Below are positions 5,079-60,900 of a stretch of 64,000 nucleotides of DNA, one piece after another; the first letter of the stretch is position 1; the number at the start of each line of letters is the position of its first letter. Source of the stretch: Paraspadella gotoi (taxonomy: Eukaryota > Animalia > Chaetognatha); the NCBI GenBank assembly GCA_051294375.1, contig CM119265.1, positions 12,950,124 to 13,014,123 on the forward strand. The letters are read 5' to 3'. Made by a program: the position numbers and the translations under genes. Below the pieces are notes generated by a model that ran no database searches, was not told the DNA's origin, and saw only the letters and a list, made by a program, of their open reading frames with translations.

Positions 5079-6559
5079 CTAAACACCAAATTACTTTAGC
5101 TTACTTTATATTTTCTTTTCCTTTCATGCTATAGTTTCAGTTTTTAACCTCTTTAATCAACAAAAAAAAACTAAACCAAATGACTAGAAAATAATCCTGT
5201 AAATGGAAAGAATACAGAAATACAGAAAATTACTTTTCTTTAAAGAAAAACTTAATAAAAAAATTATAAAATACGTCAATTATTACAACCAAATTATGTC
5301 TTCAGTTGAGAAAAATGTTATTAATAATATTGGCAGCAAGGAAACCAACGTGTATGGTTTTTAACTTTTAATCTAGGCAAAAGCCAACATACAATCTTGG
5401 CCGGCGTCTCTGGAAACGGGACAGGAACGTTGGGCCGGCCTAGGAAATCATTTAACGAAAAAAAAAGGGCAGCCATTTCGATTTGCAGCCTATTGGCAGC
5501 CTGCCACGATGGCCGAGTGCTGCAGCCAACGAACTACGCACATAGCATCAATCTTTTTACATACCTTTGAGTTTAAACGAGAGGTTTGTAGGAACAAGGA
5601 CTAACAATGAAGGAATTATATTCGATGTTAATGCAAGAATTATAGATGAAGCGAAAAATAAGAAAAATTAATAGGAAAATTCAGAAGCCGCTGGATGGCT
5701 TATTTTCCCCACGAGCCACGTTTCTTCTCTCTGCCTGTCGAGAGACTGAAGGGAGTGAACAACGAATAGAAGAGAGAAATCCGCAGACAAAGCGCTGCAG
5801 CGACGAGGTTGAAACCTGCAGGCGAAGCGTCCAAAGCGCCTCGTCTTACAGGAAGAGGAAGAGTAAAACAAAATGTTCTTTGCCCAGAGAGGGAGCGTAG
5901 AAAAATAAAGACAGCAACGAATTGCGAAATGAACAACAGAATGTAAGGTTTATATGAACTACTTATGTGGATTTAAATAATTTCCATACTCAAACAATTT
6001 AAAATGTTGATAGTAACAGTGTTGAAATATTCTTAAATAAATATTTGTCACTATATGAGCAAATTTATTTTATTTTTCCTCATTTATGATTGTGAGATTG
6101 ATCAGATTAATTAGAAGCTTAGCTGACACAAACCGTAATATTAAATAAATTTACTTCCACTAAAAAAATCCCTTATGTTATGAAAACCCTTACATGAAAT
6201 TTTCAAAACTTATTAGAAATAAGAGTAGTCCAAGATTTTGAAATGTTCCCCCTGTTAGTGTAAATATATAAAAACTCAATTTGCATTGAATAATACAATA
6301 AAAAAAACCGACGCTGCTGATTGAAAGCTTGTAGAGACCTGCTACGTCATTATCTTATAAGAGTGATGAAGGCCCTAAACCACCAAAGCCTGTCCAAAGT
6401 CAGGGGCAAGATAGCTTATTTATTAAATGAATGGATAATTTTTATATTGGTTGTACCAATTTTATGACATGGACGACCATAATTAGCAAACGCTAGTTTT
6501 TTATACATTGATATTCATAAGAAGTGAAATCCTAGTAGGCGAAAGTAAAATATTACCAT

Positions 6560-7185
6560 TACAGAAGGCTTCATATTATAAAATTAGTTACCCCTTTTTT
6601 GTGACCAGAACACGTTCCGAGAGAACTACTGGACCAAATTTATTGAAATTTAGTATGAGGGATCCCTATGTGAATACAAATAGATCTATCGAGGCGAATT
6701 TCAACATTTGACCCCTGAGCCGAGATATGGGGCCCCGGAGGGGTCACCCTTAGTGGCTAAAGAAGATCAAAAATTGTTTTCAAATTTTAAAGACGTTTAT
6801 TTGCATAGACGTTTACTTTTAGTTTACCTTAATTTTTAGCTTCATGAACATCAGCAGTTCAAGTCAGTTTTGAAATAATTTGGGCAAATTGGAAGTAAAA
6901 TGATGAATCATGCATCTTCAAACTATGCTTAATGATTGAAAATTTAATTAATTTTAGTTCTAAAATATTTTTCAAAAAATGAAATTTTTTTATTTTTTTT
7001 GGCCCCCCCGGGGGTCCACCCCAGGGCCCTGTATCTCTTGTCAGGGGTTGAATATTAAAATTCGCCTCGATAATTCCATTTATATCTTCATTAGGACTAA
7101 ATGCAAAATTTCATGAAATTCGATCAGGTAGTTTAGTAGGAACAGAAAAAAGGGATACCTCATTTTATAATATGAAGCCTTCTGT
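6560..7185. mobile_element. TIR-bounded non-autonomous DNA transposon (MITE)
   Basis: Terminal inverted repeats tacagaaggcttcatattataaaat / attttataatatgaagccttctgta, plus internal inverted sub-repeats. Confidence 0.7.
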
Positions 7186-15452: not shown

Positions 15453-16160
15453 GTAAAAAAATCGCATCAAATAGGACCATTTCCATAGTCATTTTACTTA
15501 AATAATGACGATATCCTAAACGTTGTGGCAGTACTATTTTAAAGCTGCCTTTCCGCTATCCGTCCTCAGTCTCAACAGTGCGTCCAGGGATCTATCCCTG
15601 GGTATTACCCATTTGTCCATCATATACTTAATCAATATTTACTACCACTTTTATAACTAGTGAAGCACAGTATAACATTGAAGTATTTAAATATTTATAA
15701 ATGCATAGGCAATAAAAATATTTTTTGTAAAAATTTTATTTTTTAAGACCGGATTCAGATAGCCCATAAAAAGTTGTCTTCACAAAGTATAATGCGTTTT
15801 TCAATATATCGATGATAAGTGGGTCAAATAAGGGAAAAACCCTTAAAAATCATCATCATCATCAACATACCATAATTTTTATAGTTTTTACTAATTTTAA
15901 CCAATAAAACATAAAAATTTTGAATTCTTGTAATAATATTTTTTATTTATTTTTTCCAAGCTCTACCCGAATTCGTTTTTAAAAATTCTGAATTTGAAAT
16001 ATAAAATTTTTATGATTTATAGTAATACGATAAACTTTAAATGCTTCTATGTTATTAACTATACATAAAATCTTAATTTTTTTTTTAATTTCGTTATCCC
16101 ACAGGGATGCTTTAACGTTATTTATATGACAGATCTCGTAGTATCCAAGTTATGATTTAA

Positions 16161-16228
16161 ATGAGACAGGACGTCGGGACCAGTTTAATCATGCCAGTGA
16201 TAGGTGGTCACTGAGGGCCCGCACTCCA
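16161..16228 (+). ncRNA. Degenerate type-P5 twister-like motif (24.5-kb subfamily)
   Basis: ATGA GA CAG GAC..GTT T^AA TCAT GC CAGTGAT aggtg GTCACTG AGGG CCCGCACT. P2 ATGA/TCAT is compensatory relative to ATGT/ACAT at 24.5 kb; L4 and P5 are decayed. The element's 5' end (TGTGGCAG) lies at 15524, separated by another insertion. Confidence 0.55.
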
Positions 16229-16897
16229 CGCCCCGGGTATCACTATTACTATTACTATAAATACATTGTATTTTATTATACTGTTCCTCAAACAATATGA
16301 GCAAAATATTTTTTTAATCGATAATCATTCTATCTCATGTCTAAATATCCTTGTGAATATACCGCCACACTTGTTTGTTTACACTCAAATAAATTTTTTG
16401 TTCCTGAGAGATCCACTCTAACAGGCAATCCCACCGTTCCCATAATGATATGGTAACCTATACCTGTATTCAAAACACATAACTCAAAAACTTAATTCGT
16501 AGATCATCCCCAGTCGGAAACGTATCAGCAACAAGAGAACGGACAAGACTAAACGAACCATTAAACCAGAATTCAAACATAAAATTAACCAAGGGTGAGT
16601 CACTGCTGATAAATCTAAAATATTTAAGAATTATCAAAGTTTGGCTTAAGATATACCGAGTAGTCCAACTTCAAAATTACGATAAAAAGTTATTAAATTC
16701 AGTAAATCGTTCTAGTTAAGGATACGAAACTGGCTTCGTTACGTGAAACAAAATAATAAGAACACGGTATTATGATTTTCAAACATACGTCAACATTTAA
16801 CAAGAAAAATAGCCATTAATAACGAATGAATTGAGCAGAACAACTGCGAAAAAACGAAAATTGTTTTGGGTAGTTTTTAAGTAATATTTTGAATTTT

Positions 16898-23633: not shown

Positions 23634-26600
23634 CTATGATCCAAATTCAATAGTGTCTTCCCCGATTCTTTTGTAAGTGTAATTTCCTTTTCCATCCATG
23701 TATAGAAAGAACTCGTGATAGTTCCACAGCGACTTCCGATGTGATACTGTAAACAACGTAATCCCGACCTGAATGGAAAAAAAAGTTATGTGATCTTTAC
23801 CACTCGTGTTTTGGTTAAATCTATATCTCTCTCTCTAAATTTAGTGTTGTGGTAGCACGACTTAAAGCTGTCTCACTGCTGTCCGTCCTCAGCCTCGTCT
23901 CAATGGCTGAGCAGAAGGGTAGAGTGATGAAAAGATTGAGCGATTGAACATTATTTTTTTACTGCCTATGGACATGTAATCAATGAATTTAAAATCCTTT
24001 AAAATTTTTTTAAAGCATAACAGTATAGTAAATTCAATTATTTATGTAGTAATATCCTTCTAAAATCATACAATTTTAAAATATTTTTATTTTATTTTAA
24101 AGAACAGATTTGGATTCGCCATTTTTCACCTTTCCCCCCCCCCATTTTAAATGTTGAAGACGACATAATTTTTAATAACATGTTTTATATTTTTGATTTA
24201 ACTTTTTATGAAGAATCTGAATCTTTATAAAAAGTTTTACTATTTTATAAGGATATTACTATAAATATATTGTATTTTACTATTCTGTTCCCGAGACTAT
24301 AATAACACCCACGCTTACAATTGCTTAAAGTATGAATATCACGCCTATGCCCTACTTCTCTGGTAATGCTCTAGATTCACCCACTCGCCCACTCTCAGGA
24401 TTGAGGCCCCTGGGGAGAAGTCTGGTGGGAGGATCCTGTGGCAGCACAACTTAAAGCTGCCTCACTGTTGTACGTCCTCAGCCTCGTCTCAATTGCTGAG
24501 CAGGCTAAATCCTAAAGAGTCCTGGGTTAAATCCTCGGATATCCCAGTTCTGGCTTAAATGTGACGGAGCCGGTTTAAACATGCCAGTGACCGGAGGCAG
24601 TCACTGAGGGTCCGCAGCCCCTATGCCAGTTGGTGAGATACCCTGCGCCCCGTATATCTTCCCGTTGCCATAGTATCTTCTTTCTTGCCACTTAAGAATC
24701 GTGAAGACGAAAGAGAAAATATGTCGAAATGGAAAACTGGGCGTTACCTCTTTGCAATAAGCGTACATATAACCCTCAACGTCAACGGAAACTGCCGAGG
24801 TACATTCGTCGAGAATTGCGAACTGGGGTTTGTGATAAAAAAGGCGAGCCATGGCAATACGTTGCTTCTCTCCTGTTGCAAAACATTTGATTTTAAATGA
24901 AATATCACAATTTTATAAATGAAATAAAACTAAAGGCTACAATCAAGAAAGAAAAGACTTACCTCCAGAAAGAACGTCCATCCAATCACGCTCAGTGTCC
25001 CACCCAGTAATGTCTTCTCTGTCCAATAGGTACCTAAGTTGCACTTTATCCAACAAATCCGCCAGGTCCGCGTCGCAAAGTCCCTTCGACATCACGTCGT
25101 TGACGGAGTCAGGATAAATAACCTGATCTCGCAAAGTGCCGATAGGCATGTACGGTCGTTGTGGAATGTAGAAAAGTTTCTTCTTGTCCGGTTTTGTCAG
25201 CCTACAAAAGTTTTTATGTAGTTATATCCTGGGCTTACTAGGTCAGGTGATAATCATAATGATTTGGCGGTATTTTAATCACAGGGGGAAAAATGAGCAG
25301 GAAGACACAAAAAATTATAACTAACCTTCCGCCAAATAATGGCCATAATTCTCCAAGAATCCTAAACAGTGAGCTCTTCCCACAGCCATTAGGACCACAG
25401 ATAATGACGTTGTGTCCCGAAGTGACTTCAAAATTCATTGATTTGACTAGCATATCGCCGTTTGGCGTGACCAGAGGCACACCTTCGAATCGGATAACGT
25501 GATCACGATGGAGGATTTTTCCGGATCCAGGAATTAGCGGCGAAATCTGATACGCGATTAAGGAAATGAAAAATAACTTACTGGATAATGAAAAGAGCAT
25601 TTTTTATTTGTAAAATAAATTCTTCCTGGTCGGTGATTTTTTTTCTGCTTCTTATGAGCACAAATGTAAAAAAAAAATTTCCGAAAAAAAGACCGATGGT
25701 TTTTCGAATATTACACAACCACCCTTAACCTTAACCAGTAACAACCTCTAACCCTAACTACCCCTAACCTAAACCACCCTTAACCTTAACCAACCTTAAC
25801 CTTGACTAACCCTTGACCTTAACGACCCCTAACCTTGAATAACCCTAAACTTAACCAGACTTTACTTTTTTTTCCCTGTAGTATCAAACCACAGTAATGA
25901 TATATGGGAATAGAAAAATAACCGATCGGCTCGGTTCCTGTCGTCGAAAGTAAAATGGTGTATTTTATTGAAACAAACCATTTGGAAAGTATTCTTCCTA
26001 TCGCCACCAGCGTGGTTCTCTAACTCGCGAGCTGTTGCGGTCATTGTCCTTTCGTATTTCCCCCGATTTAAGTCGTTGAGAACGTCCACAAGTGAGCTGA
26101 CTCGAGCCGTGTAACTGGGAAGAGTTTGTTGTGACATATGATGTGACAAATGCAAATTGTTTTAATTATTGCTACTTCGTACTAACCCAGCAAGCTTGGT
26201 CATTTCACGACCAGCCAAAACTAATCTCCCGATGGCTTCGGCAAGTCGAATCAACATACGACCGCTGAGGTAATATTCTTCCAACCTTGTGGACAATTGT
26301 AGCAAAATCAAATAATGATAAGATGTAATTAATAAATTATAAATAAATATTTAATAATATAATATAATATTTAACTCGCCTTTCTTTGTGCGTCTTGTCA
26401 AAATGCTTTCCGCTGTAGGCAAGAAAAGGTCGAGAAACGACAAAAAAACCAACTACAGTTGCTAAGTATTTCGCAACTATGTTGTCCACCATTCCCATTG
26501 AGAATTTGAAAGTAATAACGTCACGAAGATGATCTACTAGTCGTTTAAACACCTGCATCAGGGTTATGTGCTCCCTTTTGTTACCTGCAACAGAATCATA

Positions 26601-28471: not shown

Positions 28472-31400
28472 TTATATTCTTGGCAAACAGAACTCATCAA
28501 AATTGATTATCCTGTACTCCTGCTCAACTTCGGGCAAGTCTCGATGAAGAAGTCTTTTTTTCAGTTGGACTGGCAATGGTAAATTGTAGACGACCCGAGG
28601 TAATTCGCGACCATAGGTACCGCGCAGCCAATTAGAAACAATCGTAGCCAGGGTGGGCGGACGACTTCCACTTTCCATAAGTTCTTGCCTGAAGTCCTAA
28701 AAAAAGTCATGAAATATAATTAAAAGCGTTATTTATTCGCTAATATCCAAAGAGTAAAACCTGTATGAAAACCAACGCACCTTATCCTTTATCAAGGCTT
28801 CTGGCGGATTTTCGATAATCCACTCTTGTTCACTCTTATCATGTAGGGGATAGCCACTCTCAATTAAAAGTCGAGCTACCTCGAAATGTCCTCGGTGACA
28901 TGCAACGTAAAGTGGCGTATGTGGAGAGGAATAGAGGTATTGCACGTTATTGTAGCCGCTCTCCATCTGTTCCGTGCCGCGTGAGGGTACGTTGAGAGGG
29001 AACGCTTGAAATCTTAGCAATTGTACAAGAACTTTTAGATGTCCGCGGCAACAGGAGTACCTGAGGGATTTTAAAGGTGGATCAAGAATTACATATTTCC
29101 ATTCTGGTTGTACCAATTTCATATTATTAATATTAGTAGTTTCCAAAGAATTACCAGATAGGCGTCACGGCATAACTGTTTCGTACAGAAGGATCAGCGC
29201 CATTATCCAAAAGACAAGAAACCATGTCAATTTGACCGTGATAAGCAGCGTAATGGATGGCGCGATCTGCGTCTTTGTCAGCATTATCAATCAAATGGCG
29301 ATTAAGCGGCGCCAGCATCAATACCGCTGGCGTGTTCTGGCGAAACGCAGCGATCCCGAGAGGCGAATTTTTGTCCAGGGTAAGGCAGCATGGATCTGCT
29401 CCTAATAGAAGAGGGGTAATGCATCGAAAAAAATATTAAAAGCATAAGGATTGTCGCAATAGCATAGCAAAAATCTGGACCCATAACAAACTTTGATACT
29501 CAAAAACTAAGTTTTATATATAACTTGGTGTAATATACATAACAAATTTAAAAAATTGGTTACTTTTACTTTCGCCGACCGGGGTTAGGGTGGTTAATAG
29601 TGATTTAGGGTTCTTTTAGGGTTAAGAGGGTTTAAGGTAATATTTTTTTTTTAAATAAATATTTTTAAATGATTTTTCAAAAGCCGCCATAACCGCGGTC
29701 GGCGAAAGTAAAATATAGCCAAGTCGTAGCGTGAGCTTTGAGTTTGATTTATTAAATGAATGAATAATTTTAATATTGGTTGTACCAATTTCATACAATG
29801 ATTTGAAAGAAAGTGTAACAATTTTAAAACATTTAAAATAAAAAATTAAATGTACAAAATATTAATTTATATTAATATAAAATTACATTAAATTAAAACA
29901 ATTGAATACAATAATCAGAGGGAGAAGGAGAAGGAGAGAGAGAGAAAGAGCAAGAGGGAGAAAGAGGGAGAAAGAGAGACGAGTAACTTTCAGCTCCAGT
30001 CGCTGCAGAGCTCAACTCGTTTTTGGACGAATTAGTGACGTAGAGACTGAGAAAAAGAGTATGTTAGCTGAGCACGAACATGAGATGGCTAGAGTCTTTA
30101 AGAGTGTGAGAGTAAAATGTGAAATCTGTGGACTCGAGCTCGATAGATCCAATCGAGCTATTATAGCTCGATTGGATCTATCTAGCGCTAGGCACATGCG
30201 ACGACAGCATTAAGAGGCAGTCCCTCGTAGGACGAATGCCTGTAAAATCAAGTCAAGAAAAAGAGAAATAATTATAAAGAAAGAACTACGTACTAATTTT
30301 TATTCAAAATGTTCTAGCTAATATCTATAACGTAGCTAAATTTTTTACGCCGACAATGACGTTTATTGGGACCATCGTCCCAAAATCGATAAAAAAAAAA
30401 CAGACGTAAGACGAAAAATATTTACCTTTTTCAAGCAGCTTGGCTACAACCCCATTAAGATTACACCAGCAAGCAGAATGAAGTGCAGTATAGTGGTCAT
30501 CTGTTCGACCAAGCATGACGTCAAGGGCGTCGTTTTCAAGGAATAGATTACATGCTACGGGGACTCCATCATTACGAGTGAATACATTGATCGCATCCAT
30601 TAGCGCCGTCTCACCATAGTCGTTGCGTATATTGGGATTTGCGCCCCACTTAAGTAGCAACCTTGAAATTGCATAAATATGTACATAAAAATATAGAAAA
30701 AATTTACCACAATAAACTTGCATTTAAGTGCGTCGGTCATATAACTTTGCGAAAAACATACAAAATACAAATATTGGGTGTACTCCATTATTTAGAAATA
30801 GGGGTATCATACTATGAAGTATATTGAGAATCATTACTGTACTGGGGATACTAGTTGTTCATTATATCCTAGTTACAATAAAAAAAATTATAGACCCAAG
30901 TCTTTGAGAATTGTACCCCATTTTTGCTTGAAGTTTGGTTAAATCACCAAAATTTTATAATTATTAAAACCTTTTTAACAATCAAAAGTATGCTCATTTT
31001 CATTTTAAATATTCATTTCCAAAAGTTTTTTTATAAAAAAGTATTTTAAAACTAAAAAAATATTCAAATTGGCATTTTAAAATAATTAGTATTTGAGCAA
31101 AAATAAGAAAAATTTTAAAATTTGAGATTTTATCAAATCTTCATATCTTGTAACGGTTACTGAAAGCAAATAAGATATCAAGCTTCTCCTTCCAAATAAC
31201 CTTAAGACTACCAAGTACCAAAATTCATTAAAAATGTATTTCATAGAATTTACTTAATTGCTCACACTTCTGATATCTTATACCATATTTTATACCAAAT
31301 GTGCAAAACTATCTTGTGAGAAGACCAAAATCTAGATTTTCTATCAAAAAATCTAGATTTTTTGACAGAAAGCTAGAAAACTAATCGTTTTTGGCGAATC

Positions 31401-34400
31401 CCGGCCATCTAAACCATTTCAATATATTTTCCATGGCATGGTGACAATTTGCCATTAGAAAACACGTAGAGAATTTTGCTTTTAGGAAATAAAAATCTGT
31501 AGCCAAGACATTTGCGGTTTCTAAGTAAAAATTTTATACAATTCAATTATGATTTTCCTTTGTAATGAGTGAAGAAAGATGAAAGTCAAATTCAAGTTCC
31601 TCAATCAGAAATAAAGAGAAATTAAGCTTTTGAAATTTATATCTCTTCTAATGAAAGGTAGTCATAATTTTATACCTTATAACTTTAGCTTGGTTAATAT
31701 GTCATTCTTTGCATAGTGCTTTCCATAGATATCCATATTTGGCTAAATTTTACTTTCGCCGACCCTGGTTTTGGCGGCTTTTGAAAAACTATTTAAAGAT
31801 ATGTATTTTTTTTTAAATTTTAAAAAATATTACCTAATTACCCTAAACCCTCTGAACCATAATTATTAGGGCGTTTAAAAATAACAAAATATAACAAATC
31901 GAATAAGGTACATAGCTATTTTAGTGTAATTAAGTCTGTAGAATTTGTTGATAACCATTTTTTTATAAAGTTTCATCTTTTTTGTCGGAAATGGCGATTT
32001 TTGTAGCATATAAGGTACTACTCAAATGGAACAAACATTGTAGAGTATAAAAAACTCCAATTATTAAAATTTTATAAAAGCCATATTTAGCTTACATATT
32101 ATGAAAATAAAGACCCATATAAATATTTGGGTAAGTTTATTTACAAATTTTATATTTTATTAACTGTTTTTTAATTATATTTATTAATAAATAATAATAA
32201 AAAATAGGCAAAAATTTTTTTAAAAAATTTTTAAATTTTTATAACCGGATTTGAATTCCTTACAAAAAGTTGATATAAGAAAATATAATCCATTTTAACA
32301 AATTCTTTCATTAAGTAGGTAAAAAATATTAAAAATTATTTTTTTATTTAATTTTTTAATTTTTGGATTAAAATTTGAGGCAAAATGGTTTTTGTTTTAC
32401 AACGAATTTTTTTATTTTTCATAGAAAAAAACGGACATGTTTTGGCTTTAGTTGCAAGCCTTCTTCAGCGTTAAACAATTAAAATTATAGTTTTTCTGAA
32501 TTTTGATCAACTTTTAATCAACTTTGATATAATTTTGATATAAAAATTATTTTTTCTTATATCAACTTTTTGCAAGGAATACAAATCCAGGAATAATTTT
32601 TTTTAATTTTTTTTTTAATTTTAAATTAATTTTTATTCATAATTATTAATAAACATAATTAACTTTTTATAAAATATAAAATTTAAAAATAAACTTACCA
32701 AAATATTTTTATAAGTCTTTATTTTTATATTTCAAAAGCTCATATTAATTTTATAAAATTTTAATAATTTAATTTATCATAACTTATAATGGTTTTGCTA
32801 TTTTATTACAATTTTATATATATTAAAAATCGTCATTTTTGACAAGAAAGATAAAATCATACAAAAAATGGTCATCACCATCGAATTCTACAGACTAGTT
32901 TACCCTAAAATAGCTATGTACCTTATTCGATTTGTTATATTTGTTATATTTTATTATTTTTAAATGCCCTACTAACTACTAAGGCGTAGTAAAATTCCTA
33001 AGTTTAACTTTAATTAAAATTCTAAAAGTGAGGAATGAACAACATTATACTTATAAACATTTATGTATAAAAAAAATTTCTAATAAATTTTATAATTTAT
33101 ACTAGTACTAAACCAATAAATGTTAAAATTTCAAAACAGTTTTTTCTAAGATTTTTTGACAGATTTGGATTCGTCATAAAAAGTTGATAAAAAGAAAGAA
33201 AACTCTTTTTGAAAAATTCCTTCATTAAATAGGTCAAAAATTAGAAAAAGCTTTATTTTAAGCTGAAAATTAACTTTTTATATATTAAATATAGTTTTTT
33301 AAATTTTTTAACTCACTTAATGAAAGAATTTTTAAAAATGATTTATATTTTCTTTTGACGAGGAATTCAAATCTGCAATCAAAATTAAGAAAAGCCTATT
33401 TTGAAATTTTTCGATTTTATAAGGAGAGTACTATATATAAATATAGCCTACTGCGAAAATTAAAAAACAAAATTAATTTTTTTTACAAACTAATGTTCAC
33501 TGATGGTATGTTGTTCATAATTGACTTTTAGAATTTTTGTATGTAACTTTCACTACGCCTTACTAACTATCCCTAACCCTAAACCACCCCTAAACTACCC
33601 TTAACTAGTGGTAGCCGACCAAATTCAAATTTTAATAGAAACAGCATTAAACTAATCCATTATTGGTATTAGTTATTGTGTTAAAATATTTTTTGCAAAA
33701 AAGTCCCGAACCATGAGTAATTTGTTAATTAAAATTATTTTATTGCTATATAATGTCCAAAAATTTTTTTGGATATTTGAAATTTTTTAAATTGATTCTG
33801 ATAGAACTCAAAAAGTTAACTAAAAATATAATTACAACTTTTTAAAATGTTGATGTTTTATTATTTTATCCATTTTTCTCAGAAATGTATGAAGTTTCAT
33901 TTGGGAAAGTTCACAAATTAAACTTCTGACCCACCCCTTTGACAAAGTTTGGCTTCAAACCATCTTTTTCCCTTTACAGTTACAGCAAAAAAAAACAAAC
34001 AAAAAAACAAAAAAACCTAAATGATATAATAATTATTCATAAAAAACGTGAATATCTTGTCTAAAGATTTCTCTTTTCAAAAAGTAAAAATCTTTACACG
34101 TTTTTGCACAGACGGACAGACAGAGATGTACATCATTTTTTTTTTTGCATAATTTATATAATTCTGTGTTCTGACATGATATAAGTGATTTATAGAGTCG
34201 GGATCTGCTGATAAGCAATTCAGACTAAAAAGAAAAATAAAGCGAGCTCTAGGGACAAGAGGCTTTCGGAATCTCATAATTTGAAGTCCCATTTATAATG
34301 CTAGCATACCGTAATCCCGTTTGTAATTTTAAAAAAGTGAAATTTCCCTTTCATTTCTAAACTAAAAACGAGGTTAGAAAATTCTCTGGAGATGAGTAAT

Positions 34401-36974
34401 TTATTTCTCCTGCCTTGTTTGATAATAAAATCTTTATCAAATGCCAGAAGAAAATATTAACGAGTTCTTGAGATGCAAAGCTGTCGGAATCGTAAATTTT
34501 ATTTTAAGCGATATTTTTGCCTAACTAACGGCTTTAATAGCCTAATTAGAATATTTTTAGACTTATGTAGAGTTTGAAAATACTTTTTTATGAAAATATC
34601 TTTTGGAAATATATATCTAGAATGAAAATAAAAATACCATTTGACTGTTATAATTTTCAAAGACGTCCATATTTTTTTAAATTGTAACTAGGACAGTAAA
34701 CAACCAGAATCCCCAGTACAGTAATAATTCTCCATATACTCCATAGTATGACCCCCCTTAGTTAGCAAACTACTAATTTTATTTTCAAACATTGATCAGT
34801 CTGTTCAATTAATATAAATTTCATGATAAGTACCTGATCATGTGAGCATAAACATCGTTTTCGGAGGATATGGTTGCTTGTGCCAAAAAATGAAGTAGCT
34901 GCGTCAAGAGGATTCATTGAAATTATTTTTTAAATAACTTGCTTATTAAAACGTGACCGTAATTCTGAGTGTTCACGTGACTACACAATTATGAAACATT
35001 CACAAGAAGCATTTACCGATACATTATCAGTCTGCTGATTCTGTAATTATGAATTATGCCGCATTGAATTTCTGGTCATATGATTACTTTTTTTGGGTCA
35101 TTATGTGACTGCACAACTGCTAAATTTGACCTGTTCACCAAAAAAAAAACCTTTATAAAGTAATCAATACTCAAAATATACAAACAAAAAAAATATTAAA
35201 TGCATGGTGGACTAAAATCCGCCAACCGTTCATCAGCGGCCATTGGTGCCAGAGGCAAGTCATTCGCCTCCCAACCCAAAGGTCCGGGGTTCTTGCCCGG
35301 TGGTCGCCTAGCAGTTAAGAGGGGCGGGGCGCTTAACCCGCCTATAACACGGTGTTACAGCCTGATCCGAAGCTCAGGGACTGCTTATATTGAACGGTTC
35401 TGTCACTAACACATAACAATAATTACTGTCTCTTCAAATGAATGGATAATTTTTATATTGGTTGTACCAATTTCATAGTATACTCACTACTCACTACTAA
35501 ATATATCGCATTCGCAATCTTAAGACTTACCGTGTCATTATTTTCTGCCTTGTGATTCGGATCGGCACCGAAAAATAATAAAAGCTTAATCAATTCGAGA
35601 TCCTGTTCCGTCAAAGCTAAATTGAGAGCCGCTTCCCTCCCCCACCCAACGGAGTTGGGATCAGCACCATCGACTAAGAGGCGTTCAACAAGGGCAGGCC
35701 CTGCAGGCAATCCGCGTAACAAAGGGTAAGTGAACTCTTCGTGTGGCCCGTCGGGAACATTAAGTGGAGCCGAAACGGGCGCCCGCAAAAGAGTTTCGAT
35801 CATTTCTGCGTCCCTATTTCGTGCCACAAGTCGATGCCACTCATCCAACTCTTCTAATTTTCGCTTTCGTTCGGGGAAGACGTATTTGTCGCGAGTCCAC
35901 GAGCTCTCGCGTATCGACTCGAGGAGGAGTTCGATTGCTTGGGACAAAGGCAAGATGTGCCAGTCAAAAGGTGCATTGGCGCCCCCGTCTGAAGAAAAGG
36001 CAAAGGTCTTGAGGTCGGCACCGGCGTCGACCAGGGACTGGAGGCAGAGAATTCTCCGGTACATAATAGCGACGTGGACGGGTTGAAGACCGCAGGCGCT
36101 TGTTTTGTTGCTGACGTCGGCGCCATTGGTAATCAACTTATCGACGAGACGGTGGTACCCCAGCATCGACGCAATGTGAAGAGGATACGTGCTCGCCATT
36201 AGGTTCATCATTTTCGGGTTATTCAATAACGACTCAAACTGCCCCATTGTTTGACACCGGCGAGCGGAGTCGAGAAGAAGTTTTACACCGTCTTCCTTCC
36301 TGAAATTGGTAGGACGAGACATATTTTAAGAACTTGATGAACTTTTTGTTTGTAAAGAGCTTGAGACACTTTTACAAAGCTATTACCAAAAAAATATATC
36401 TCACCTGCATCTACAGACTCTAATTGGGCCTAATGGTCCGATATCCTTCACTTTCAAAGAGAGAAGGAAAGCTCGAATGAGATCGTCGCTCTGCTGCTCG
36501 CTCTGTACGCTGCTAGGCGGCGAAGGTTGGTCCGTTTCCATGGCATCTGTTGAACTGGTCAAGAAGCAGTATATAACGATTTGCATTCACGTTGCGCGTG
36601 AGCTGTATCTGTTTGTGATATCGCTATCATCGATGATATAAAATCGAGAAAACAAATCACCTTACAGTTCCAGCGGTTCGGGGGTAAATTCTTTCTCTCC
36701 ATCCCAAGCTACCAGGATAAAATCCGGCTAAAGTGTCTATTTCAAAGCCAACTTCATAAAATTGCCAGCAGGAACAGGTAATGCTACTGCTGGTACCATA
36801 AGGTATCCGTCCATGAGAAATGCCGTAACTAGTCTCACCATTGGAGATGGCGCTAAGAAGAAATCGATGATTAGCAAATTGAGAGTTTTCAATAAGTTTT
36901 GACTCAACGGCTTCCAGGTCGCCAGTGACTAACGCCTCGAAAAAAGAAGATTCTTCTTCGACGGAGATGGTCAT
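28472..36974 (-). CDS. Ankyrin repeat and SOCS box-containing protein (ASB family)
   Basis: Multiple ankyrin repeats (YPLHIASMLGYHRLVDKLITNGADV, GETALMDA, TALHSACWCN, TPLYVACHRGHFEVARLLIESG) and a terminal SOCS box PPTLATIVSNWLR...NLPLPVQLKKRL. Exon structure is only partly resolved. Confidence 0.85.
29565..29713. mobile_element. Helentron/DINE-like non-autonomous element with telomere-like tract
   Basis: Inverted ends ttttactttcgccgaccg / cggtcggcgaaagtaaaa enclose degenerate (TTAGGG)-like repeats. Related ends occur at about 10625-10730, 31748, 37126/38460, 44930, 51465-51560 and 54790. The superfamily assignment is an inference. Confidence 0.6.
30801..34757. mobile_element. Nested transposon cluster inside an outer TIR element (ASB intron)
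   Basis: Outer TIRs of about 80 bp (30801-30880 / 34681-34757). Inner palindromic element 31867-32971 (TAGGGC..GCCCTA), element 32980-33562 (TAAGGCGTAG..CTACGCCTTA; flanks CTAACTAC/CTAACTAT), and 33607-33955, which is repeated at about 60576-61178. Confidence 0.75.
32430..32472 (-). ncRNA. Minimal type I hammerhead-like motif (degenerate)
   Basis: Minus strand AACG CTGAAGA A GGCTT gcaacta AAGCC AAAAC ATGT C CGTT. Stem I, stem II and palindromic stem III are present, but catalytic G12 is A. Confidence 0.55.
35204..35437 (+). mobile_element. tRNA-Gly-derived SINE-like element fused to a twister-like ribozyme
   Basis: 73-nt tRNA-like head at 35236-35308 (acceptor GCGGCCA/TGGTCGC, T-stem CCGGG/CCCGG, TCGCCTCCCA anticodon region), followed 2 nt later by a twister motif. 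Second copy at 57526-57759(-). Confidence 0.8.
35311..35384 (+). ncRNA. Type-P5 twister-ribozyme-like motif
   Basis: GCAGT taa G[A]GG GG CGG GGCGCT T^AA CCC GC CTATAACA cgg TGTTACAG CCTGA TCCGAAGC TCAGG g ACTGC. The conserved GA is GG in this copy. Confidence 0.8.
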
Positions 36975-41500: not shown

Positions 41501-41574
41501 TTGCTTTCCGGAACTACGGATCCGGCGGTAGGCTTGCTACCGGTGGTTTAACCGGCCCGTCACTCTTTTTGCAA
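41501..41574 (-). ncRNA. Type-P5 twister-ribozyme-like motif
   Basis: Minus strand TTGC aaaaa G[A]GT GA CGG GCCGGT T^AA ACC AC CGGTAG caagc CTACCG CCGGA TCCGTAGT TCCGG aaa GCAA. T2 is AC/GT (compensatory vs GC/GC). It lies in a GC-rich island at about 41390-41580. Confidence 0.82.
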
Positions 41575-46800: not shown

Positions 46801-49800
46801 ATTAAGGGGTGAACTTAAGTAATATTTTGCCTGATTAACTGAGCAAAGTGTTACTGAAATTGCCTAGGTAAAGAAATGATTTTTCTTAATTAAGATAAGC
46901 AATTTCTAAATCAAAATATTTTGCTTATATTTATTTTTAAAGATAAATAAAACAATATATTTTCTTTTGTTTTAATTTCGTTCTCAACTATATTTTAAAT
47001 TTGTTTATTACTATATTTTTAAGCCCATAAATACTTTTCCCAGATGGCATGAAATATGAGTATCAGCATTAAGTATGTAAACTACTTGGCTACTACCAGA
47101 CCCAGAACCAATAAAATTATTAAAGAAGATTAATTCATTGATAAATAATTATACTATTGCAACAGCCGGGTTGCCTGTGATGCCCATTGGGATGGGGGCA
47201 TCTCACTGTTGGCTTTGGGGCTTCCGACCCTCAGTGACGCCTCCAGTCACTGGCGCCGGTTACCCTAGGACGGTCTCGCTTTGCCAACGCAGAGGGAAGT
47301 CGTTAGGACTGGATGGAACACTACGCCTGGGATGGTGTGTTCCCCCTCTGAGCCAATGGATTTGGCTGATCGATGGTGGACGTGAGGCGGTGTAAATATA
47401 CCGCCACAGGATCTCCGGGCCAAGACATCACTCAGGTTCCTCAAGCCTGAGAGGTGTCTGACAAGACTGTTACCATAGTGGGAGAGAGAGAGCGCGAGTT
47501 GTGGGGGCATAGGCGTTTGTCGTAGCGTACCCCAGGGGCATAGGCGATTTGTTCGTAGGCGTACCCTGAGAAGGTTGCGTGTTCGATAGTAGGGCTCAGC
47601 ACTTATGGCAACAGCCGAGTTGCCTGTGATCCTCATTGGGATGGGGCATCTCACTGTTGGCTTTGGGGGCTTCCGACCCTCAGTGACGCCTCCAGTCACT
47701 GGCGCTGTTACCCTAGGACGGTCTCGCTTTGCCAACGCAGAGGGAAGTCGTTAGGACTGGATGGAACACTACGCCTGGAATGGTGTGTTCCCCCTCTGAG
47801 CCTATGGATTTGGCTGATCGATGGTGGACGTGAGGTGGTGTGAATATACCGCCACAATACTTAAAAATGTATAAATTTTCGTTTGAGCATGTACTCATAA
47901 ATTTTTGACTCGCCCCATTGTGTGGGACTACCCCTACTAGTACTTTGATCTCCAAGAGATTAAAAGACATTTCATTCTCCAGTTATGAAGAAGTACAAAC
48001 ACGCCAAGGAAGATTTTTATTGTGTCTCCTGGACGACTTTGTCCGTTCCCAATCCAGAAGACGAAAGGAGAGAAAAAATCAACATCCTCGCTGCCGCGGG
48101 CCAGCAGGCAATTATTTATCTTCAATCCTTGATTTACCCAGATTGCAGCAAACCGATAATGTCAATACAATGCTTGCCAAAAACCAATTACTAAGTAATT
48201 GAGTACAATTCTCTAGGGGGACATTAAACTGCTTCAACCGGATCAACTTCTTTGCTACGCTCAAATGAAAGGCCACAAGAAGCACGTAAACTGTTTGCTC
48301 TTCCACCCCCACAATCCTTCCCACCTCTTCTCTGGCGCCAACGACAAAACTGTTATGTTGTGGGACATCGGAATTCCCGTGCTTCCGACGTTTAAAACGA
48401 AGTTCAAAGCGTTGATCAGTTTTCGAGTTCCTGTTTCTGGTCCTTGCGACGTTCTCAATTTGCACTTTCATGACGACAGGTAAAGCATGATCTGGGCAAA
48501 GTGGAAATCTTCAATGAGCAAAAACAGAAGGCAACGCATCAAAGACTGGCGTACTAACTTATTTTTGCTCTACATTAATACCGATTGATGCTAAGGAGCA
48601 CATTTCAAGTGTCACATGAGTTGCTCTGACCGAGGCAATCCACATGGTTTCCATCAGGCACAACTGTTTTCTAATTCTTTAGTTTATTCTATTTGTTTGG
48701 TCGTAGGTACATCGTTGCGTCCACGGAGAGCCATTGCATTATCTGGGATTCGTCAGATGCCGAAACCTGCCGCAAAAGTGTTGGAAAGTCGGCCACGAAA
48801 ACAACGAAAACCCCGAGAAACAGAAAGCATCTCCTCGAACTTGAGCTTCCGTTCATGCACACAACTTCAAGTGTTATGGACGGTTTAGTGGGTAATTGCT
48901 TTACGTAGTTACTTATTGCGGAGTTCCTGTTCAAAATATCCTTAACTATCGAATTATTTATAATTTTGATAACTCTTGCTTACTAAATATTTTTAACTAA
49001 CCTTCCTTTCTTCCTACCCCGTGTCCGTTCGCGAGTGACACCAAAAAAATATTTTCTATACTTTAAATATTTAATAAATATAATTCATAAGTATATCATT
49101 AGTTGGAGAACTACTGGACGTTTTTTATGTACGAGTTTCATTTTGTGTTTAATTCATTTACTATTCTTTGTTTAATTTTTTATCTAACACAGTAAAATTG
49201 GCGAAAAAAGACCATTTTAAGCGTGTTCTTGATTGAATTTTAAAAAAAAATTTTCATCATAAGAAATTCTTATTAATGGTCTAATCAACGGAGTATATGA
49301 ATTATCGTAATGTTGAGTAACTTTTGAGTAATTATTTTTTATTTTTTTAATTTTAAATCTTAAGTTTTTTTTATACAATTTGTCCAATTAAAAAAAAATG
49401 CTGTCCCGAGCATATTCTTGACTGTTTTAAATAATTATTTCATATCTTAAGGATTCCCAGATAATTTTTAATTTAATGGTATAAATGAATTTTACTAATT
49501 TTAATTAATTAATAAGTAATTAATTTTTTTTAAGGATTCAGTTTTTTACTGAAGATGAAATTGGATGACTATTAAAGAAAGGTTGTTTTAATAAGTTAAC
49601 ACAAAATTTTTAATTCTTAATGAAAATTAAAATTATAAACGGTCCAGTACTTTGCTATAGAATAAAAAAAAAAATTTAAAAAATATTCATCAAATGAGAA
49701 ATGGTACGCATTTTTTTTTTGGTGTCACTCGCGAACGGACACGGGGTAGTCTCAGGAACCAAGTACGTACTACATTGATTTAATTTTTCTTTGCAGGCTT

Positions 49801-54900: not shown

Positions 54901-57900
54901 ACGACGACGATGGCGACGACGACAATTATGCCGATAACGATTGACTTGATTTATTGATTGACTAATAAATAAATTGATTGATTGATTGAATAATTAATTG
55001 ATTATTTTTTTAAAAAATACTAATTAAATTTTTTTAAAAATTTTTAACAAAATTATTCATCGCGAATTTCCTTTCGTTTCGTTGTGTTTGAATTAGTAGT
55101 AGAAGTTTGAATTTGTTTATGTACCAATAAAATCGTTGTTGTAAACAAATTCAAACTTCTTCTACTAACAAAATTATTATATTAGTTATAAAAATCCAAA
55201 TTATAAGCATATTTATTAAATGTCTATCATTATCTATCAAGCATAAGCTTAAATTTGAGATCTCTCACAACTTTTTATGATTTTTCATTATCGAATTATT
55301 TATAAAAATTATAATTTTTTATTTATTATTATTTATTTATTTATTAATTAGTACTTCTGAACGAATTATTTTTTAAAAATATGGATACAAATATGCTCTC
55401 AAAATGCAGTTCTACTTATTAGGCCTCGTTAATTAATAATAATTAAATTATAAAAAATTTATTATTAAAAGTTAATTCATTATATTTATTAATATATTTT
55501 ATATTATATATCAAATATTGAATGAAATGAAATTGGTACAACCAATATAATATAATATAATAATGAAATTTTTTAAAAATTTTATTAAATAATAAAAATA
55601 TAATTAGTATTAAATGCTGGATATGAGTTTGAATTAAAGCAATTAGCTAATATAATTACCCGTTATTTTATTTTAGATTAAGTTTTAATTAAGCATATAT
55701 TAAAAAAAATAAAATTAATAATTTTTTAAAATGTCGTTTTAATGCTTAATAAGTAGAATGCATTTTGAGAACATATTTGTACCTATATTTTTAAAAAGTA
55801 ATCCAATTTTAAATACTAATTAATTTTTTAATATCAAAAATTATAATTTTTATTAATAATTCAATAACAAAAATTTGCAGAAAGTTGGTGATGATAACCA
55901 AATGATGGATGCGATGAAAGTCATTCATTGATGCGATGATAGTCATTTATTGACGCGATGAGTCATTCATCGTAAATAAAAAACAAATGTGTTTGAGTGA
56001 GAGAGAGTCAATTAATTATTTTATTAATTAATACATCTTGCATTTACATTTAATATAAAAAGAAAAAGAAGCATAATCAATTAGTGAAACAGGTTTTTTG
56101 TTTTTTCTCTTTAAACTAATTTCCACTCAGACGATTCCATCGAAATTTAATTTCCAGCTCAATCACAGACTTTCCTACCCACATACAAATTTTTAATTCA
56201 ATCGCCCCATATACTCATCAGTAATTGGCGTTAAAAGTTAAGGGGGGGACGAACAAACGGACAGACATCGTTTTTTTTGGCATATTTTATCATTATTTGA
56301 TGTTCTGATTTAAGTCACTTACCGACAAGCTTTTGGGATGGGACATAAGGACCGACAAAGTGAATTATAGAGCCGAGATGTGCTGTGAGATGTCTTTGTC
56401 TAACTTAGACTAAGATTTAATTTGATGTATTGTTCACCTCATTATGTACTTAATTTCAAACAAAAGCATTTTTGATTTTAACACAACAAAAACGTAAAAT
56501 ATTAAATATTTTTATTTTGAACCCTTTATTATTAAATTTAGACCGAATTTTATTCTCATAATTAGCAGAAAAATCTATGATTAATGTAACGAATTTCATG
56601 ATAATATAATAAATATTTTCAGATTAATTGGACGACCAACGTTCTTTCCTCGAATAATTTACCTCACCATTTCTTAAATATCTCGCAGGTGACATCGTAT
56701 TGAGAAGAACGCCTCGAGGAGACCACGAAAATTTGTATCGAAGAGGATTTTCTAGTTTTGAAAAATGTACAAAAACCATTAAAAATTTTCAGATGACATT
56801 TTTGATTGCACCGGCATATGCCTTTGTGTTCTGCTCGTATGTATTGGTAAAGAAACAACAATCGGCGAGTTCAAGATGTTGGCGTTGCGCCGCAGTATCA
56901 CCCTTTTATGGACGGTGGACACATTTCCCGATAAGTATGTATCTACCCAAATCTAAAATATATGGTTGTTCACTAATCTTTAAAGCTTTAACTAAAATAA
57001 GCAAATATGTCTTGAAATATGCCGCACTGACTTTCTGATAACATGCCTTGTTACAGAAGTATAAAGCATATAAACAAAAATTACTTACTGATTCGTTACC
57101 CCGTGAGCCAGAAAGGATGGCACTAATAAAAGCGCTCCCATTCCTCTATGTATTAGATCCTTGTATTTTGATGCTAGTGCGGAGTACATATAGTATTCTC
57201 CGATCTAATACTTCAGGGAGTGGTCTTTTCATACAATTGAAACATTCTTTGAAATATTATACCACTTCATTGATAAGGAAGCCAGGTTCACTGGGAGTGA
57301 ATAAACAAGTCTGTGACAGAGGCTTGATTAAAAGCTTGCAGAAACCCGTTATGTTATTATCTTGCAAGTGTGATGGAGGCCTTAAACCACCAAAGCCTGT
57401 CCAAAGTCAGGGACAAGATAGCTTATTTATTAAATGGAAGGATAATTTTTCTATTGGTTGTACCAATTTCATACATTCAATTAGTTAAAAAAATCATTGA
57501 TGTTTTATATGTATCAAATGACATATTGAAGAGACAGTAATTATTGTTATGTGTTAGTGACAGAACCGTTCAATATAAGCAGTCCCTGAGCTTTGGATCA
57601 GGCTGTAACACCATGTTACAGGCAGGTTAAGCGCCCCGTCCCTCTTAACTGCAAGGCGACCACCGGGCGAGAACCCCGGACCTTTGGGTTGGGAGGCGAA
57701 TGACTTGCCTCCGGCATCAATGGCCGCTGACGAACGGTTGGTGGATTTTAGTCCACCATAATATGATAAATTCAATTTTATGAAGTAGTTTCTAATTTTT
57801 ACTTTGAGCCATCCGTTTAGACTCTCGGGGTACCAGTCTGCCAAGTATTAACAAAAATTAATGAGTTCTTTATAAATTATGCCGATTGGATTTCTGATCA

Positions 57901-60900
57901 TTTGATCGCGTTTTTATGATGCATTTTTGAATATTACAATTATTATAGTACCTTTCTATTAAATATAAACGCAATTGATGAATATTATTTCTGAATCTTT
58001 AATAAAAAAATTTTGTACTCGATAATCATACTATCTCGCATAAAATTATTATTGTTATTTGACTAAAATCAATTTTTTGTTATCAATCTGATAAGCCGAT
58101 CCGACTAAAAAAATCTTAAAAGCATAAGGATCGTCGCAATAGCATAAGAAAAATCTGGATTGACGACAAATTTTAATACTAAAAAAAAAAAAAAAAAATT
58201 TGAGAAAAGAAAATTAAATTATAAACGAAGAAAAATTCTATTTTGCGATTGTCAATAAAAAAAAATAATAAAGTACGGAAGAAAATTCGAGTTACAGTTT
58301 CTGAAAAATAGCAAAATGGTAACATGCACGAATACGATGCCTAATTTTACGAGTTCAATCCTATTTAAATTTTTTTTTTAAATAAAAACGCAGAGAGAGA
58401 GAGAGAGAAAAAAAAGAAATCAAAAGGCAGCAGCAGAAGCAGCAGAAGCAGCAGGAGAAAAGAGAGAAAAAGAATAAACCCCTGCAAAGCCAGCTGCAGG
58501 CTCGTTTTTTTCCCCTATGATTATGAATCAGTGACTAGGGAAAAAAGAGAGGGAGAGAGACATGTAATTAAAAGAGAAAAGAGAGAGAGAAAGAAATATG
58601 AAAAAAGAGAAAAAATTTGTTTTGATAAAACGTAAACAAAACATATTTAATAACTGTCCAGACTCAATTTTAAGCACATCGATGATGAGAAGCTGTATAT
58701 AAATTTTCAGCTTCATACACCCAAATTTAATCATAAAAAAGGCGATCTATAATTTGGAACGCCGACGACAACAACGACGCCACTTATGGGCAAAAGCGAT
58801 ACAATATCGTCGCAAACGCTTAGCGATTGCGACGATAAAAATATAAGAAAAAGCGATCTATCATTTAGAACACCGACGACGACACCGACGCCATTTATTG
58901 GGACGATCGTAACAAAATCGTCGCGCAAGCGATTGCGAATTAAAAGATGAAGCGATTGGTCCAAATCCTATTAAAATCGAGCAAAGCGTTCAAAAGTTAT
59001 AGGACGTCAGTTGATTGGTACTAAAAATCTGATAAAAGCAGTTGAGTGATTACTTACCCAAAGTTACTTTCAAAGCTTTTTCATGAAATTGGTACAACCA
59101 ATATAAAAATTATCCATTCATTTAATAAATAAGCTATCTTGCCCCTGACTTTGGACAGGCTTTGGTGGTTTAAGGCCTCCATCACTCTTACAAGATAATG
59201 ACATAGCAGGTCCCTGCAAGCTTTCAATCAAGACTCTCTCACAGTCTCGTTTATTCACTCCTAGAGTGATATTTTAGTTTTTTCTGTATGGCATCTCATG
59301 TTGAAACAGACTAATATAAACTCACAATTATATTAAAAATAAATTACTTAATTTTTGTGATTATTATTTCGTTTCGTTGGTGTATTTGATATTAGAAGAC
59401 GTTTGAAAGTTTATACAACAATTTTAACAGTTGGTTAAACTAACCTAAATCAATCTTGAATCGATTTCACTCAATTCATTCACTTGACTTTGTTCACTCT
59501 GATTTTCGTTCACTTCCGGTCGTATTTGTCTGCTCACTACTCGAATCTTTACCAAACTTGAAGAAAATTAATTTTCTTTTTTTTTCTTCTGTTTTTTAGG
59601 GCTGTCTCCAAGGGTGTAGGAGAGGCTGTGACTGCTGTCCAGTCTGCCCTAGCCCCCCTTGAAATAAAAATCGTTGTATGAACTTTCAAACGTCTTTTAT
59701 TATTAATTTTTGTAATTTTAATACAATTTTTCAAATTTTTTTAAAAAATACTATATTTACTATTATTATTTAACAAAATTTTTTATTATAGAAAAGTAAA
59801 GCAAATTTATTGCCAACCCTTTCATATGTTTAATTCCATTATGATTTTGTCAATTCTACAGGGTAGTGAATCAAAACTTAGAATAGTATTTACCATCAGT
59901 TTTTATAGGCAAAAAGTTATTGCATGTCTTTTTATAATACACTAAAATAATCACTGCTTTTTTTCTTTCTGATACAGGTTTTTTTTTCCTCATGCAACTA
60001 CAATACGCTGCGCTACTAAAAAGATTGTAACATTGGTTGTATTTGCTCTGCGCCGGTTTAAAGCTTAAAACTACTAATAAATATTTTAATGTTCCCTAGC
60101 AGTATGTTATATTATAAAGAAGGCTATTAAGAATAAGAATAACTACTATGTTAAGTCGGGAAAGCGTGCGCTCAAGCTCGAGTCGATTAAAGGAAAATTT
60201 TAAAGTGAACAAATGAAAAACTCCATTTAGAAATATTTACTGGCACATCTTATTTTTTCTATCTTATGGCCATGAAACTGCCACAGTTTAACAAGACCTA
60301 TTTTAAACTTAATTAATAAAAATAATTTAAGATGCTATAAATTTTCTTTTCTTAAGTTATCAGACAAAAAAAAATACTTCCTTATATTATAGCTACTATG
60401 CAAAAATCCATTGCTGCAGTCTATTATGAAATTGGTACAACCAATATAAAAATTATCCATCCATTTAATAAATAAGCAATCTTGTCCCTGACTTTGGACA
60501 GGCTTTGGTGGTTTAAGGCCTCCATCACACTTGCAAGATAATAACATCAAGGGTTTCTGCAAGCTTTTTATTAGCGGTAGCCAACCAAATTCAAATTTTA
60601 ATGGGAACAGCATTAAACTAATCCATTATTGGTATTAATTATTGTATTAAAATATTTTTTTGCAAAAATGTTCCGAACCATGAGTAATTCGCTATTTAAT
60701 ATTATTATATTGCTAAATAATGTCAACATTTTTTTGTGGATATTTTAAGTTTTTTTAATTGATTCTGATAGAGCTTAAAAAGTTAACCAAAAAATATAAT
60801 TACAACTTTTTAAAATTTTGATGTTTTATTACTAAAAATTAGTAAAAACTGCTAAAATCATCGGATGATGATGATGATGATTTTTTAAGGTTTTTCTCAA

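Follow-up and report, generated by a model that had tools for sequence, protein, structure and literature searches.

The 64,000-nucleotide (nt) stretch of the genome of the chaetognath Paraspadella gotoi studied here (the window; assembly GCA_051294375.1, contig CM119265.1, positions 12,950,124 to 13,014,123 of the forward strand) carries a short non-coding retroelement, element A, that has a twister-type ribozyme motif in each of its two long terminal repeats (LTRs). Its anatomy, many insertions with common ends, a primer-binding site, and a covarying RNA fold are observed in the DNA. By analogy with the LTR retrozymes of plants, we lean, on balance, toward reading it as a non-coding LTR element whose 448-nt circular RNA would be the template and whose whole cycle would run with a Gypsy-type helper.

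Element A occupies positions 47155–47856 (702 bp) and has a GC content of 57%, compared with 24% and 34% in its flanks. Read on the minus strand, it consists of a 5′ LTR (47604–47856, 253 bp), a core (47409–47603, 195 bp), and a 3′ LTR (47155–47408, 254 bp). The LTRs are 95% identical (243 identities, 9 mismatches, and 3 gaps), and the single long open reading frame across the element has no Pfam match; an initial annotation of this DNA, which had described a 702-bp non-coding element with two direct repeats around a 195-bp core, held up on re-measurement. The 4-bp target-site duplication that it reported is also present at both borders, as ATAC on the plus strand at 47857–47860 (5′ side of the element) and 47151–47154 (3′ side), and the chance of such an exact match given the local composition is about 0.009. 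The 5′ LTR has TG…TA ends and 8-bp imperfect inverted ends. The termini first given for both repeats, TGTGGC…GCCATA, apply to the 5′ repeat, whereas the outer 3′ end of element A reads GCAATA. A 6-bp hairpin lies at the LTR 5′ end (47386–47405, minus strand), and two compensatory changes keep it in a sister family, B, which is represented elsewhere in the window. Copies differ in two parts of the core, a 31–34-bp tandem unit and a CT microsatellite; the copy number of the tandem unit (47504–47570) differs among family members, with several contig joints that skip 34 nt. As previously proposed, the element resides in an intron of an LRWD1-like gene (PF23211, E 7.6e-9), whose intron limits were read by eye, and its twister strand is antisense to the gene. 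The right flank (47863–47909) starts with a piece of another repeat family that is also found at 11242–11291 and in related copies.

Other copies of the family were sampled by aligning the contigs of public sequencing runs (X1, X2, X5, and X9) to a 1.2-kb stretch, to which 11,917 of 4,416,630 contigs in X1 and 9,097 of 7,042,937 in X2 aligned. The summed depth of the core is approximately 2,800–4,900 times that of the neighboring exon; this value is no copy number and serves as an order of magnitude only, and the family probably has thousands of copies. Run X9, presumed to be RNA, also covers the intron flanks and was left out of any expression argument. At the LTR 3′ end, contigs exit into unrelated flanks at the same sites (62 and 60 per site in X1, 72 and 51 in X2), and at the LTR 5′ end (47408) they do so 97 times in X1 and 76 times in X5, a run from another study (all counts are the best-supported rows of the end tables, six rows in total). 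Agreement among the exit flanks is only 0.42–0.44, which indicates that the exits are different insertions, and the element-adjacent consensus is AAAT in one row and ATAT in the remaining five. The layout of other copies had been named as a check on the element, and both LTR ends proved to be fixed in dozens of insertions (contigs of X1, X2, and X5); fixed ends that run into unrelated flanks identify a true LTR-type element. The flanks of the sister element B match at three of four bases (GTGT/GTAT). A search for an empty site or a 448-nt go-back joint found neither among the best 15 of 142 and the best 15 of 61 joints, a result that is uninformative.

The primer-binding site (47589–47601, minus strand) starts 2 nt after the 5′ LTR. 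Element A has a point change in it at 47599: another base is found there in 503,040 of the 503,375 depth units of X1 (63 contigs) and in the entire depth of X2 and X9. From this near-universal difference, the family sequence reads TGG 2 nt downstream of the 5′ LTR. The statement of the initial annotation that no canonical TGG primer-binding site is visible is, therefore, corrected at the family level, since the loss is private to element A. The family site is tRNA-Trp-like: it matches the tRNA-Trp end shown in Fig. S2 of PMC10886601 at 11 of 13 bases, the best match obtained (rough chance 0.005), in a comparison made by eye against that figure. Self-priming between the start of the core and the LTR was considered and rejected: the best match is 7 nt, a length reached by 66 of 300 shuffles, its duplex energy was reached by 61 of 300, and the mechanism is needless because the family has a primer site. 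On the other side of the core, a short purine run (47412–47416, minus strand) ends 3 nt before the 3′ LTR; it measures 5 nt in family A and 7 nt in family B, the latter being the length given for the purine tract of biv-TRIM (PMC6934838). The run stays short in both families, in agreement with the earlier remark that no strong polypurine tract is present. Element A is shorter than 1 kb and has two LTRs, a primer site (in the family), a target duplication, no coding capacity, and a weak purine tract; with very high confidence, it is an LTR element of the terminal-repeat retrotransposon in miniature (TRIM) kind.

Type-P5 twister ribozymes were reportedly described by Roth et al. in 2014. A descriptor of this type, with its layout compared with the Rfam consensus lines, was used to scan both strands of the 64 kb. 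It matched at only three places, U 47710, U 47262, and U 24576 (the last in the sister element), and 30 shuffles gave no match. The motif in the 5′ LTR spans 47656–47736 (minus strand; core 47666–47727; predicted cut 47710/47709), and that in the 3′ LTR spans 47208–47288 (minus strand; core 47217–47279; predicted cut 47262/47261); the two cut sites are those first annotated. Both motifs have the two pseudoknots and the GA and UAA residues intact, and the core residues U-AA, GA, and the P4 loop are kept. They share with type-P5 twisters (RF02684) the order P5-P2′-GA-T1′-P1-UAA-P2-T2-P3-P4 loop with T1, AA, T2-P5′, as well as both pseudoknots; they differ from them in scoring below the Rfam thresholds, in a palindromic P1 with a 2-nt loop, and in a C-A at the first P2 pair. 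The initial annotation had further noted that P2 is imperfect in both copies. Each copy indeed has one lesion, but the lesions are private to element A and stand beside the family-wide C-A mismatch: the P2 change at 47706 in the 5′ LTR is absent from 98.7% of the depth (contigs of the public runs), and the 1-nt P2 insertion near 47256 in the 3′ LTR is absent from 50% (X1) and 71% (X5) of the depth, with many more contigs breaking there. With the loss of the primer site and half of the P2 damage confined to element A, the earlier caveats largely fall away. Twisters that have been assayed tolerate defects in P1 and P2, but not those in the pseudoknots or catalytic residues (PMC11662667, PMC5113685).

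The LTRs of families A and B are only about 60–65% alike, and the four copies of the motif in the window were used to ask how the fold is kept. Across them, 88% of the 92 cells are paired, and both partners have changed in 7 of the 23 pairs, T1 included (one of the 23 tested pairs requires two copies to form). None of 500 shuffles reached the observed level, and slid controls gave 0–1 two-sided pairs. Between A and B, the bases of the middle T1 pseudoknot pair are swapped, and P2 and P5 also change in pairs. The covariation that had been proposed as a check is, in this respect, present. A model built from the four copies also found a held-out decayed copy, D, with 37.7 bits (E 7e-7). Among the X1 contigs, 14 LTR positions vary at a frequency of at least 4%, of which 47394 was dropped as private to element A; the 56 positions of the core contain none of the 13 that were kept (P 0.036), and the only 2 inside the motif lie in the 7-nt P3 loop (P 0.011). 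From these sequence comparisons, we conclude that the twister fold is very probably under selection, and we predict that intact copies are likely to self-cleave.

The 8-nt P1 segments of element A (47711–47718 in the 5′ LTR and 47263–47270 in the 3′ LTR, both minus strand) are self-complementary, and a hairpin P1 would have a loop of just 2 nt. The segment is fully self-complementary in both A and B although six of its eight bases differ between them (duplex energies −11.0 and −10.3 kcal/mol), and the same is true of five repeat families in the window, A and B with 8 nt and E, F, and a repeat at 41.5 kb with 6 nt; in a decayed copy, C, six of the eight positions remain self-complementary. The palindrome suggests that the two LTR copies may pair with each other to cut. 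Pairing between two copies is known for minimal hammerheads (PMC7761336). Since P1 is dispensable in other twisters, cleavage by a single copy would also be possible.

The two predicted U^A sites are 448 nt apart, as stated at the outset, and double cleavage would release a monomer corresponding to 47262–47709 (minus strand). The opposite strand of this monomer is 69% paired (z −2.5). Neither AATAAA, ATTAAA, nor T4 occurs in element A. After the example of the Helenus paper, we also looked in the LTRs for RNA polymerase III (Pol III) boxes. An A-box-like motif (47344–47355) and a B-box-like motif (47311–47319), together at 47311–47355 on the minus strand, have one mismatch each and are weak. 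The pair lies upstream of the twister at LTR positions 54 and 90 in the 3′ LTR of A and 57 and 90 in B; it was equaled by 32 (A) and 36 (B) of 1000 shuffles, and 2 of 14 strand tests were positive. The 5′ LTR of element A has a private change in its A box (47803), and ARAGORN and Rfam detected no tRNA, whether in the LTRs or in family F. An LTR promoter for Pol III like that of Helenus is, at this stage, a weak lead only.

In the cycle that we propose, the predicted parts are transcription, self-cleavage, a circle of 448 nt, and a helper of the Gypsy type. Transcription would start in or before the 5′ LTR and continue through the 3′ LTR. The two ribozyme copies would pair via the palindromic P1 and cut at LTR position 147/148, and the resulting 448-nt unit would lack terminal redundancy. 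Once this unit had been ligated into a circle, whose junction would be identical in sequence to the genomic LTR, tRNA-primed reverse transcription could cross the junction and so rebuild a full LTR, the purine run would prime the plus strand, and integration of the two-LTR DNA, at sites resembling ATAT, would fall to a Gypsy-type integrase. The same logic has been proposed for plant retrozymes (PMC4918200), and in animal TRIMs, 4-bp duplications accompany Gypsy helpers (PMC10886601). The copy in the window is itself probably a dead end because its primer site and both of its P2 stems are damaged. A more specific version, which we offer as a tentative possibility, is that element A belongs to an animal LTR retrozyme lineage independent of plants and built on a dimeric twister. 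Here, the LTRs would lend each other a P1 strand, so that only full-length RNAs would be cut; the 448-nt circle would replace the first strand transfer; and the module may derive from a twister repeat in this genome that is driven by Pol III.

Several observations weigh against this proposal. The purine tract before the 3′ LTR is short, one of the two termini reads TA rather than CA, and family A as a whole carries the C-A mismatch in the first pair of P2. The covariation comes from four sequences and is mostly a single contrast of A versus B, and the structure was read from the same sequences. Common substitutions are likewise absent from the final 62 bp of the LTR, so the constraint is not confined to the ribozyme. 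A scan with Rfam, which the initial annotation had recommended, did not come out in favor of the motif: the 5′ motif reached 15.2 bits to twister-P1, far from the curated threshold of 67.2, the family B motif reached 20.8, and no Twister-P5 match was listed for the A motifs. The P1-type reading of motif B that Rfam implies was rejected because its T1 does not pair, and the Rfam scans of the element gave no hammerhead match. Pseudoknot-free folding of all three motifs recovered P3 and P5 but gave P2 and P4 pair probabilities of only 0–0.16, and the 3′ motif of element A has a strong competing rod of −37.4 kcal/mol. Finally, the circular monomer is 56% paired (z −1.27 against 60 shuffles, calculated for the decayed element A copy), whereas retrozyme RNAs are more than 70% paired (PMC4918200). 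The LTR-retrozyme interpretation put forward in the initial annotation is, on this evidence, partly supported: by the anatomy, the target-site duplication, the family primer site, and the covarying fold, but not by the pairing of the monomer, which is lower than in described circles.

The last point also bears on the alternative in which the twister is active and the circle is not the template. The ribozyme would then trim the 5′ end of a read-through RNA, much as twisters define the 5′ end of Perere-3 (PMC8501958), or would cut only part of the RNA, and a linear template would keep a short redundancy or the reverse transcriptase would jump from end to end. A monomer that does not have the high pairing of known circles fits this idea, and a ribozyme that needs two copies could well cut inefficiently. 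Yet no AATAAA, ATTAAA, or T4 is available to stop the transcript before the 3′ ribozyme is complete, a whole ribozyme is present in the 3′ LTR, and the palindromic P1 fits best with both copies on one RNA; we regard this alternative as rather unlikely, though it deserves to be taken seriously. Quite improbable, in our judgment, is an ordinary TRIM whose LTR once gained a short twister-bearing repeat, so that the fold would be a passenger or a non-cleaving packaging or dimerization signal. Such uptake would resemble that proposed for the tRNA parts of Helenus, and other twister repeats do occur in the window, one of which (family F) has a similar order of parts. The A/B-box-like motifs precede the twister, the Rfam scores are low, and a palindromic stem could be a dimer signal. 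Against it, the catalytic residues and both pseudoknots are preserved even as the stems change in pairs between A and B, and family F shows no significant similarity to the A LTRs.

The remaining two explanations concern the class of the element. Its layout is formally a partial tandem, 1.56 units of the 448-bp monomer, and it could be a non-LTR (Penelope-type) retrozyme that is LTR-like only in appearance; animal retrozymes of this kind exist, and family E of the window resembles them. Against this stand ends that are base-exact in dozens of insertions, the 4-bp duplication with a palindromic target consensus, the inverted TG/TA ends, a tRNA primer site 2 nt after the 5′ repeat, and the identical ends of family B, and this explanation, very improbable in our view, is largely refuted. 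Short imperfect inverted ends with a 4-bp duplication would suit a DNA transposon derivative with an integrase-like transposase and an internal duplication, and Ginger-type elements are DNA transposons of this sort. The long direct repeats, the primer site and purine run at their expected places, and the strand-specific RNA fold all indicate an RNA intermediate and make such an origin scarcely credible.

The sister family B is represented at 23848–24672 (plus strand) by an interrupted 5′ LTR from 23848, a partial core, and a full 3′ LTR (24437–24672), flanked by the GTGT/GTAT pair given above. The twister of its 3′ LTR has a perfect P2, its ends are the same TGTGG…CCATA as in A, and its core has a similar end. 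Shared LTR ends, purine run, and terminal hairpin indicate that A and B diverged as LTR elements. Two exons of a minus-strand ABC-transporter gene, presumably ABCD3-like, flank element B, whose twister strand is thus antisense to the host gene, like that of A. Two decayed copies are also present on the plus strand: copy C (11700–11905), an A-type LTR with a damaged twister, and copy D (15524–16234), a B-type LTR split by another repeat, with a twister remnant at 16161–16234. An isolated 18-bp match to the A-type LTR 5′ terminus is found at 16352–16369 (minus strand). Among other sequencing runs, a biofilm metagenome (X10) has one contig over 47155–47469 with 19 differences, 10 gap letters, and deletions in the P3 loop, and X11 and X13 have 2 short contigs each that match the element; these three runs were not used for habitat or host range. 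A pattern scan of viral contigs gave no loci, and all 7 loci from a metagenome pattern scan were chance matches, without BLAST similarity to A or B and without twister context.

Other repeats in the window carry twister-like motifs as well. Family E (124–518 on the minus strand, 6318–6465, 29747–29799, 35436–35477, 57155–57488, 59080–59267, and 60424–60567) is a repeat rich in AT with a unit of 325 bp, of which 124–518 holds 1.2; its 3′ end is fixed, whereas its 5′ ends vary. Its minimal type-P5 twister, whose P1 is a 6-nt palindrome, scores 25.6–25.8 bits with Rfam Twister-P5 in four copies (threshold 37.6), and the family looks, from these features, like a non-LTR twister retrozyme. Family F (35204–35437, plus strand; 57526–57759, minus strand) is a 234-bp repeat whose two copies are 95% alike; a GC-rich head is followed by a type-P5 twister-like motif that includes P3 and whose P1 is a palindrome, and one of the copies continues into a family E 3′ tail. 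Although this order of parts resembles that of the A LTR, the similarity over the whole length was equaled by 88–227 of 300 shuffles. A single twister-like remnant with a 6-nt palindromic P1 (18.8 bits) is located at 41510–41565 (minus strand). The window also contains a phytochelatin synthase gene, here in an animal genome (39045–40091, minus strand; PF05023, E 9e-83), and long imperfect inverted repeats that are 65–71% self-complementary (31860–32978, 33016–33537, 6560–7186, and 55268–55887) and are probably old fold-back or MITE-like DNA transposons. In a quick tree built from 30 of 120 CPSF2 hits, the host CPSF2 clustered with six unnamed proteins and stood apart from the arthropods, molluscs, nemerteans, brachiopod, priapulid, and deuterostomes that were included.

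Retrozymes have been divided into plant LTR elements with type III hammerheads and a Gypsy helper and animal non-LTR elements with type I hammerheads and a Penelope helper (PMC7761336, bioRxiv 10.64898/2026.07.22.740005). LTR retrozymes are described as primarily plant elements, and the layout ascribed to them in the initial annotation, a 4-bp duplication and one hammerhead per LTR, agrees with the source (PMC4918200). Element A shares with them a non-coding LTR-core-LTR structure, the 4-bp duplication, a self-cleaving motif per LTR (predicted in A), a primer site after the 5′ LTR, and the removal of redundancy by cleavage together with a Gypsy helper, both of which would apply by analogy. It differs in its animal host, in having a type-P5 twister in place of a type III hammerhead, in its sizes (a 253-bp LTR and 448-nt unit vs. 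300–400 bp and 600–1000 nt), in a Trp-like rather than Met primer site, in its TG…TA ends, and in a unit that is not highly paired; cleavage and circles have been demonstrated in plants (PMC4918200) and are predictions for element A. With a twister-type motif and no hammerhead, it is not a retrozyme by the literal definition, but it is predicted to work like one. The non-LTR retrozymes of animals have, as also annotated initially, hammerheads in tandem repeats (PMC7761336, bioRxiv 10.64898/2026.07.22.740005). They resemble element A in their animal host, in a unit of a few hundred nt between two ribozymes, and in the occurrence of dimer-dependent ribozymes, and are unlike it in their type I hammerheads, tandem arrays, and Penelope helper and in their stated lack of LTRs, primer site, and purine tract. 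Their variable 5′ ends and long duplications and their lack of a primer site are not seen in element A.

Among animal TRIMs, Helenus/TRIMp3 (PMC10886601) is similar in size, layout, 4-bp duplication, primer site for a tRNA 3′ end, and short purine tract, and a Trp primer site is used by one wasp Helenus and by a Gypsy element. Its LTRs contain possible Pol III boxes, whereas the boxes of element A are degenerate and match no tRNA model. The accessible parts of PMC10886601 and PMC6934838 describe no ribozyme for Helenus/TRIMp3 or biv-TRIM, whereas element A has twister motifs. The twister T-variants of Perere-3/RTE (PMC8501958) likewise tie a twister to an invertebrate retroelement, but they are of type P1, single, and placed 5′-terminally in an autonomous non-LTR element, whereas those of element A are of type P5 with P3 and occur twice, in LTRs. 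Fungal viruses, too, carry tandem ribozyme pairs, twisters among them. The initial annotation was aware of no animal LTR retrozyme built on twister, and we likewise found neither an animal LTR retrozyme nor a twister inside an LTR in the literature searched, which covered subscription journals thinly and did not extend to Repbase reports; published twister lists could hold one.

If the proposed reading is true, the design of a ribozyme inside the LTR would have arisen more than once and independently of the ribozyme class, which would support precise unit-length cutting for circularization as the selected function. Twisters would gain a further biological role, with a natural candidate for a two-copy twister. 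These elements of P. gotoi, which probably number in the thousands and form two or more diverged families, would offer an animal system for asking whether a circular RNA replaces terminal redundancy.

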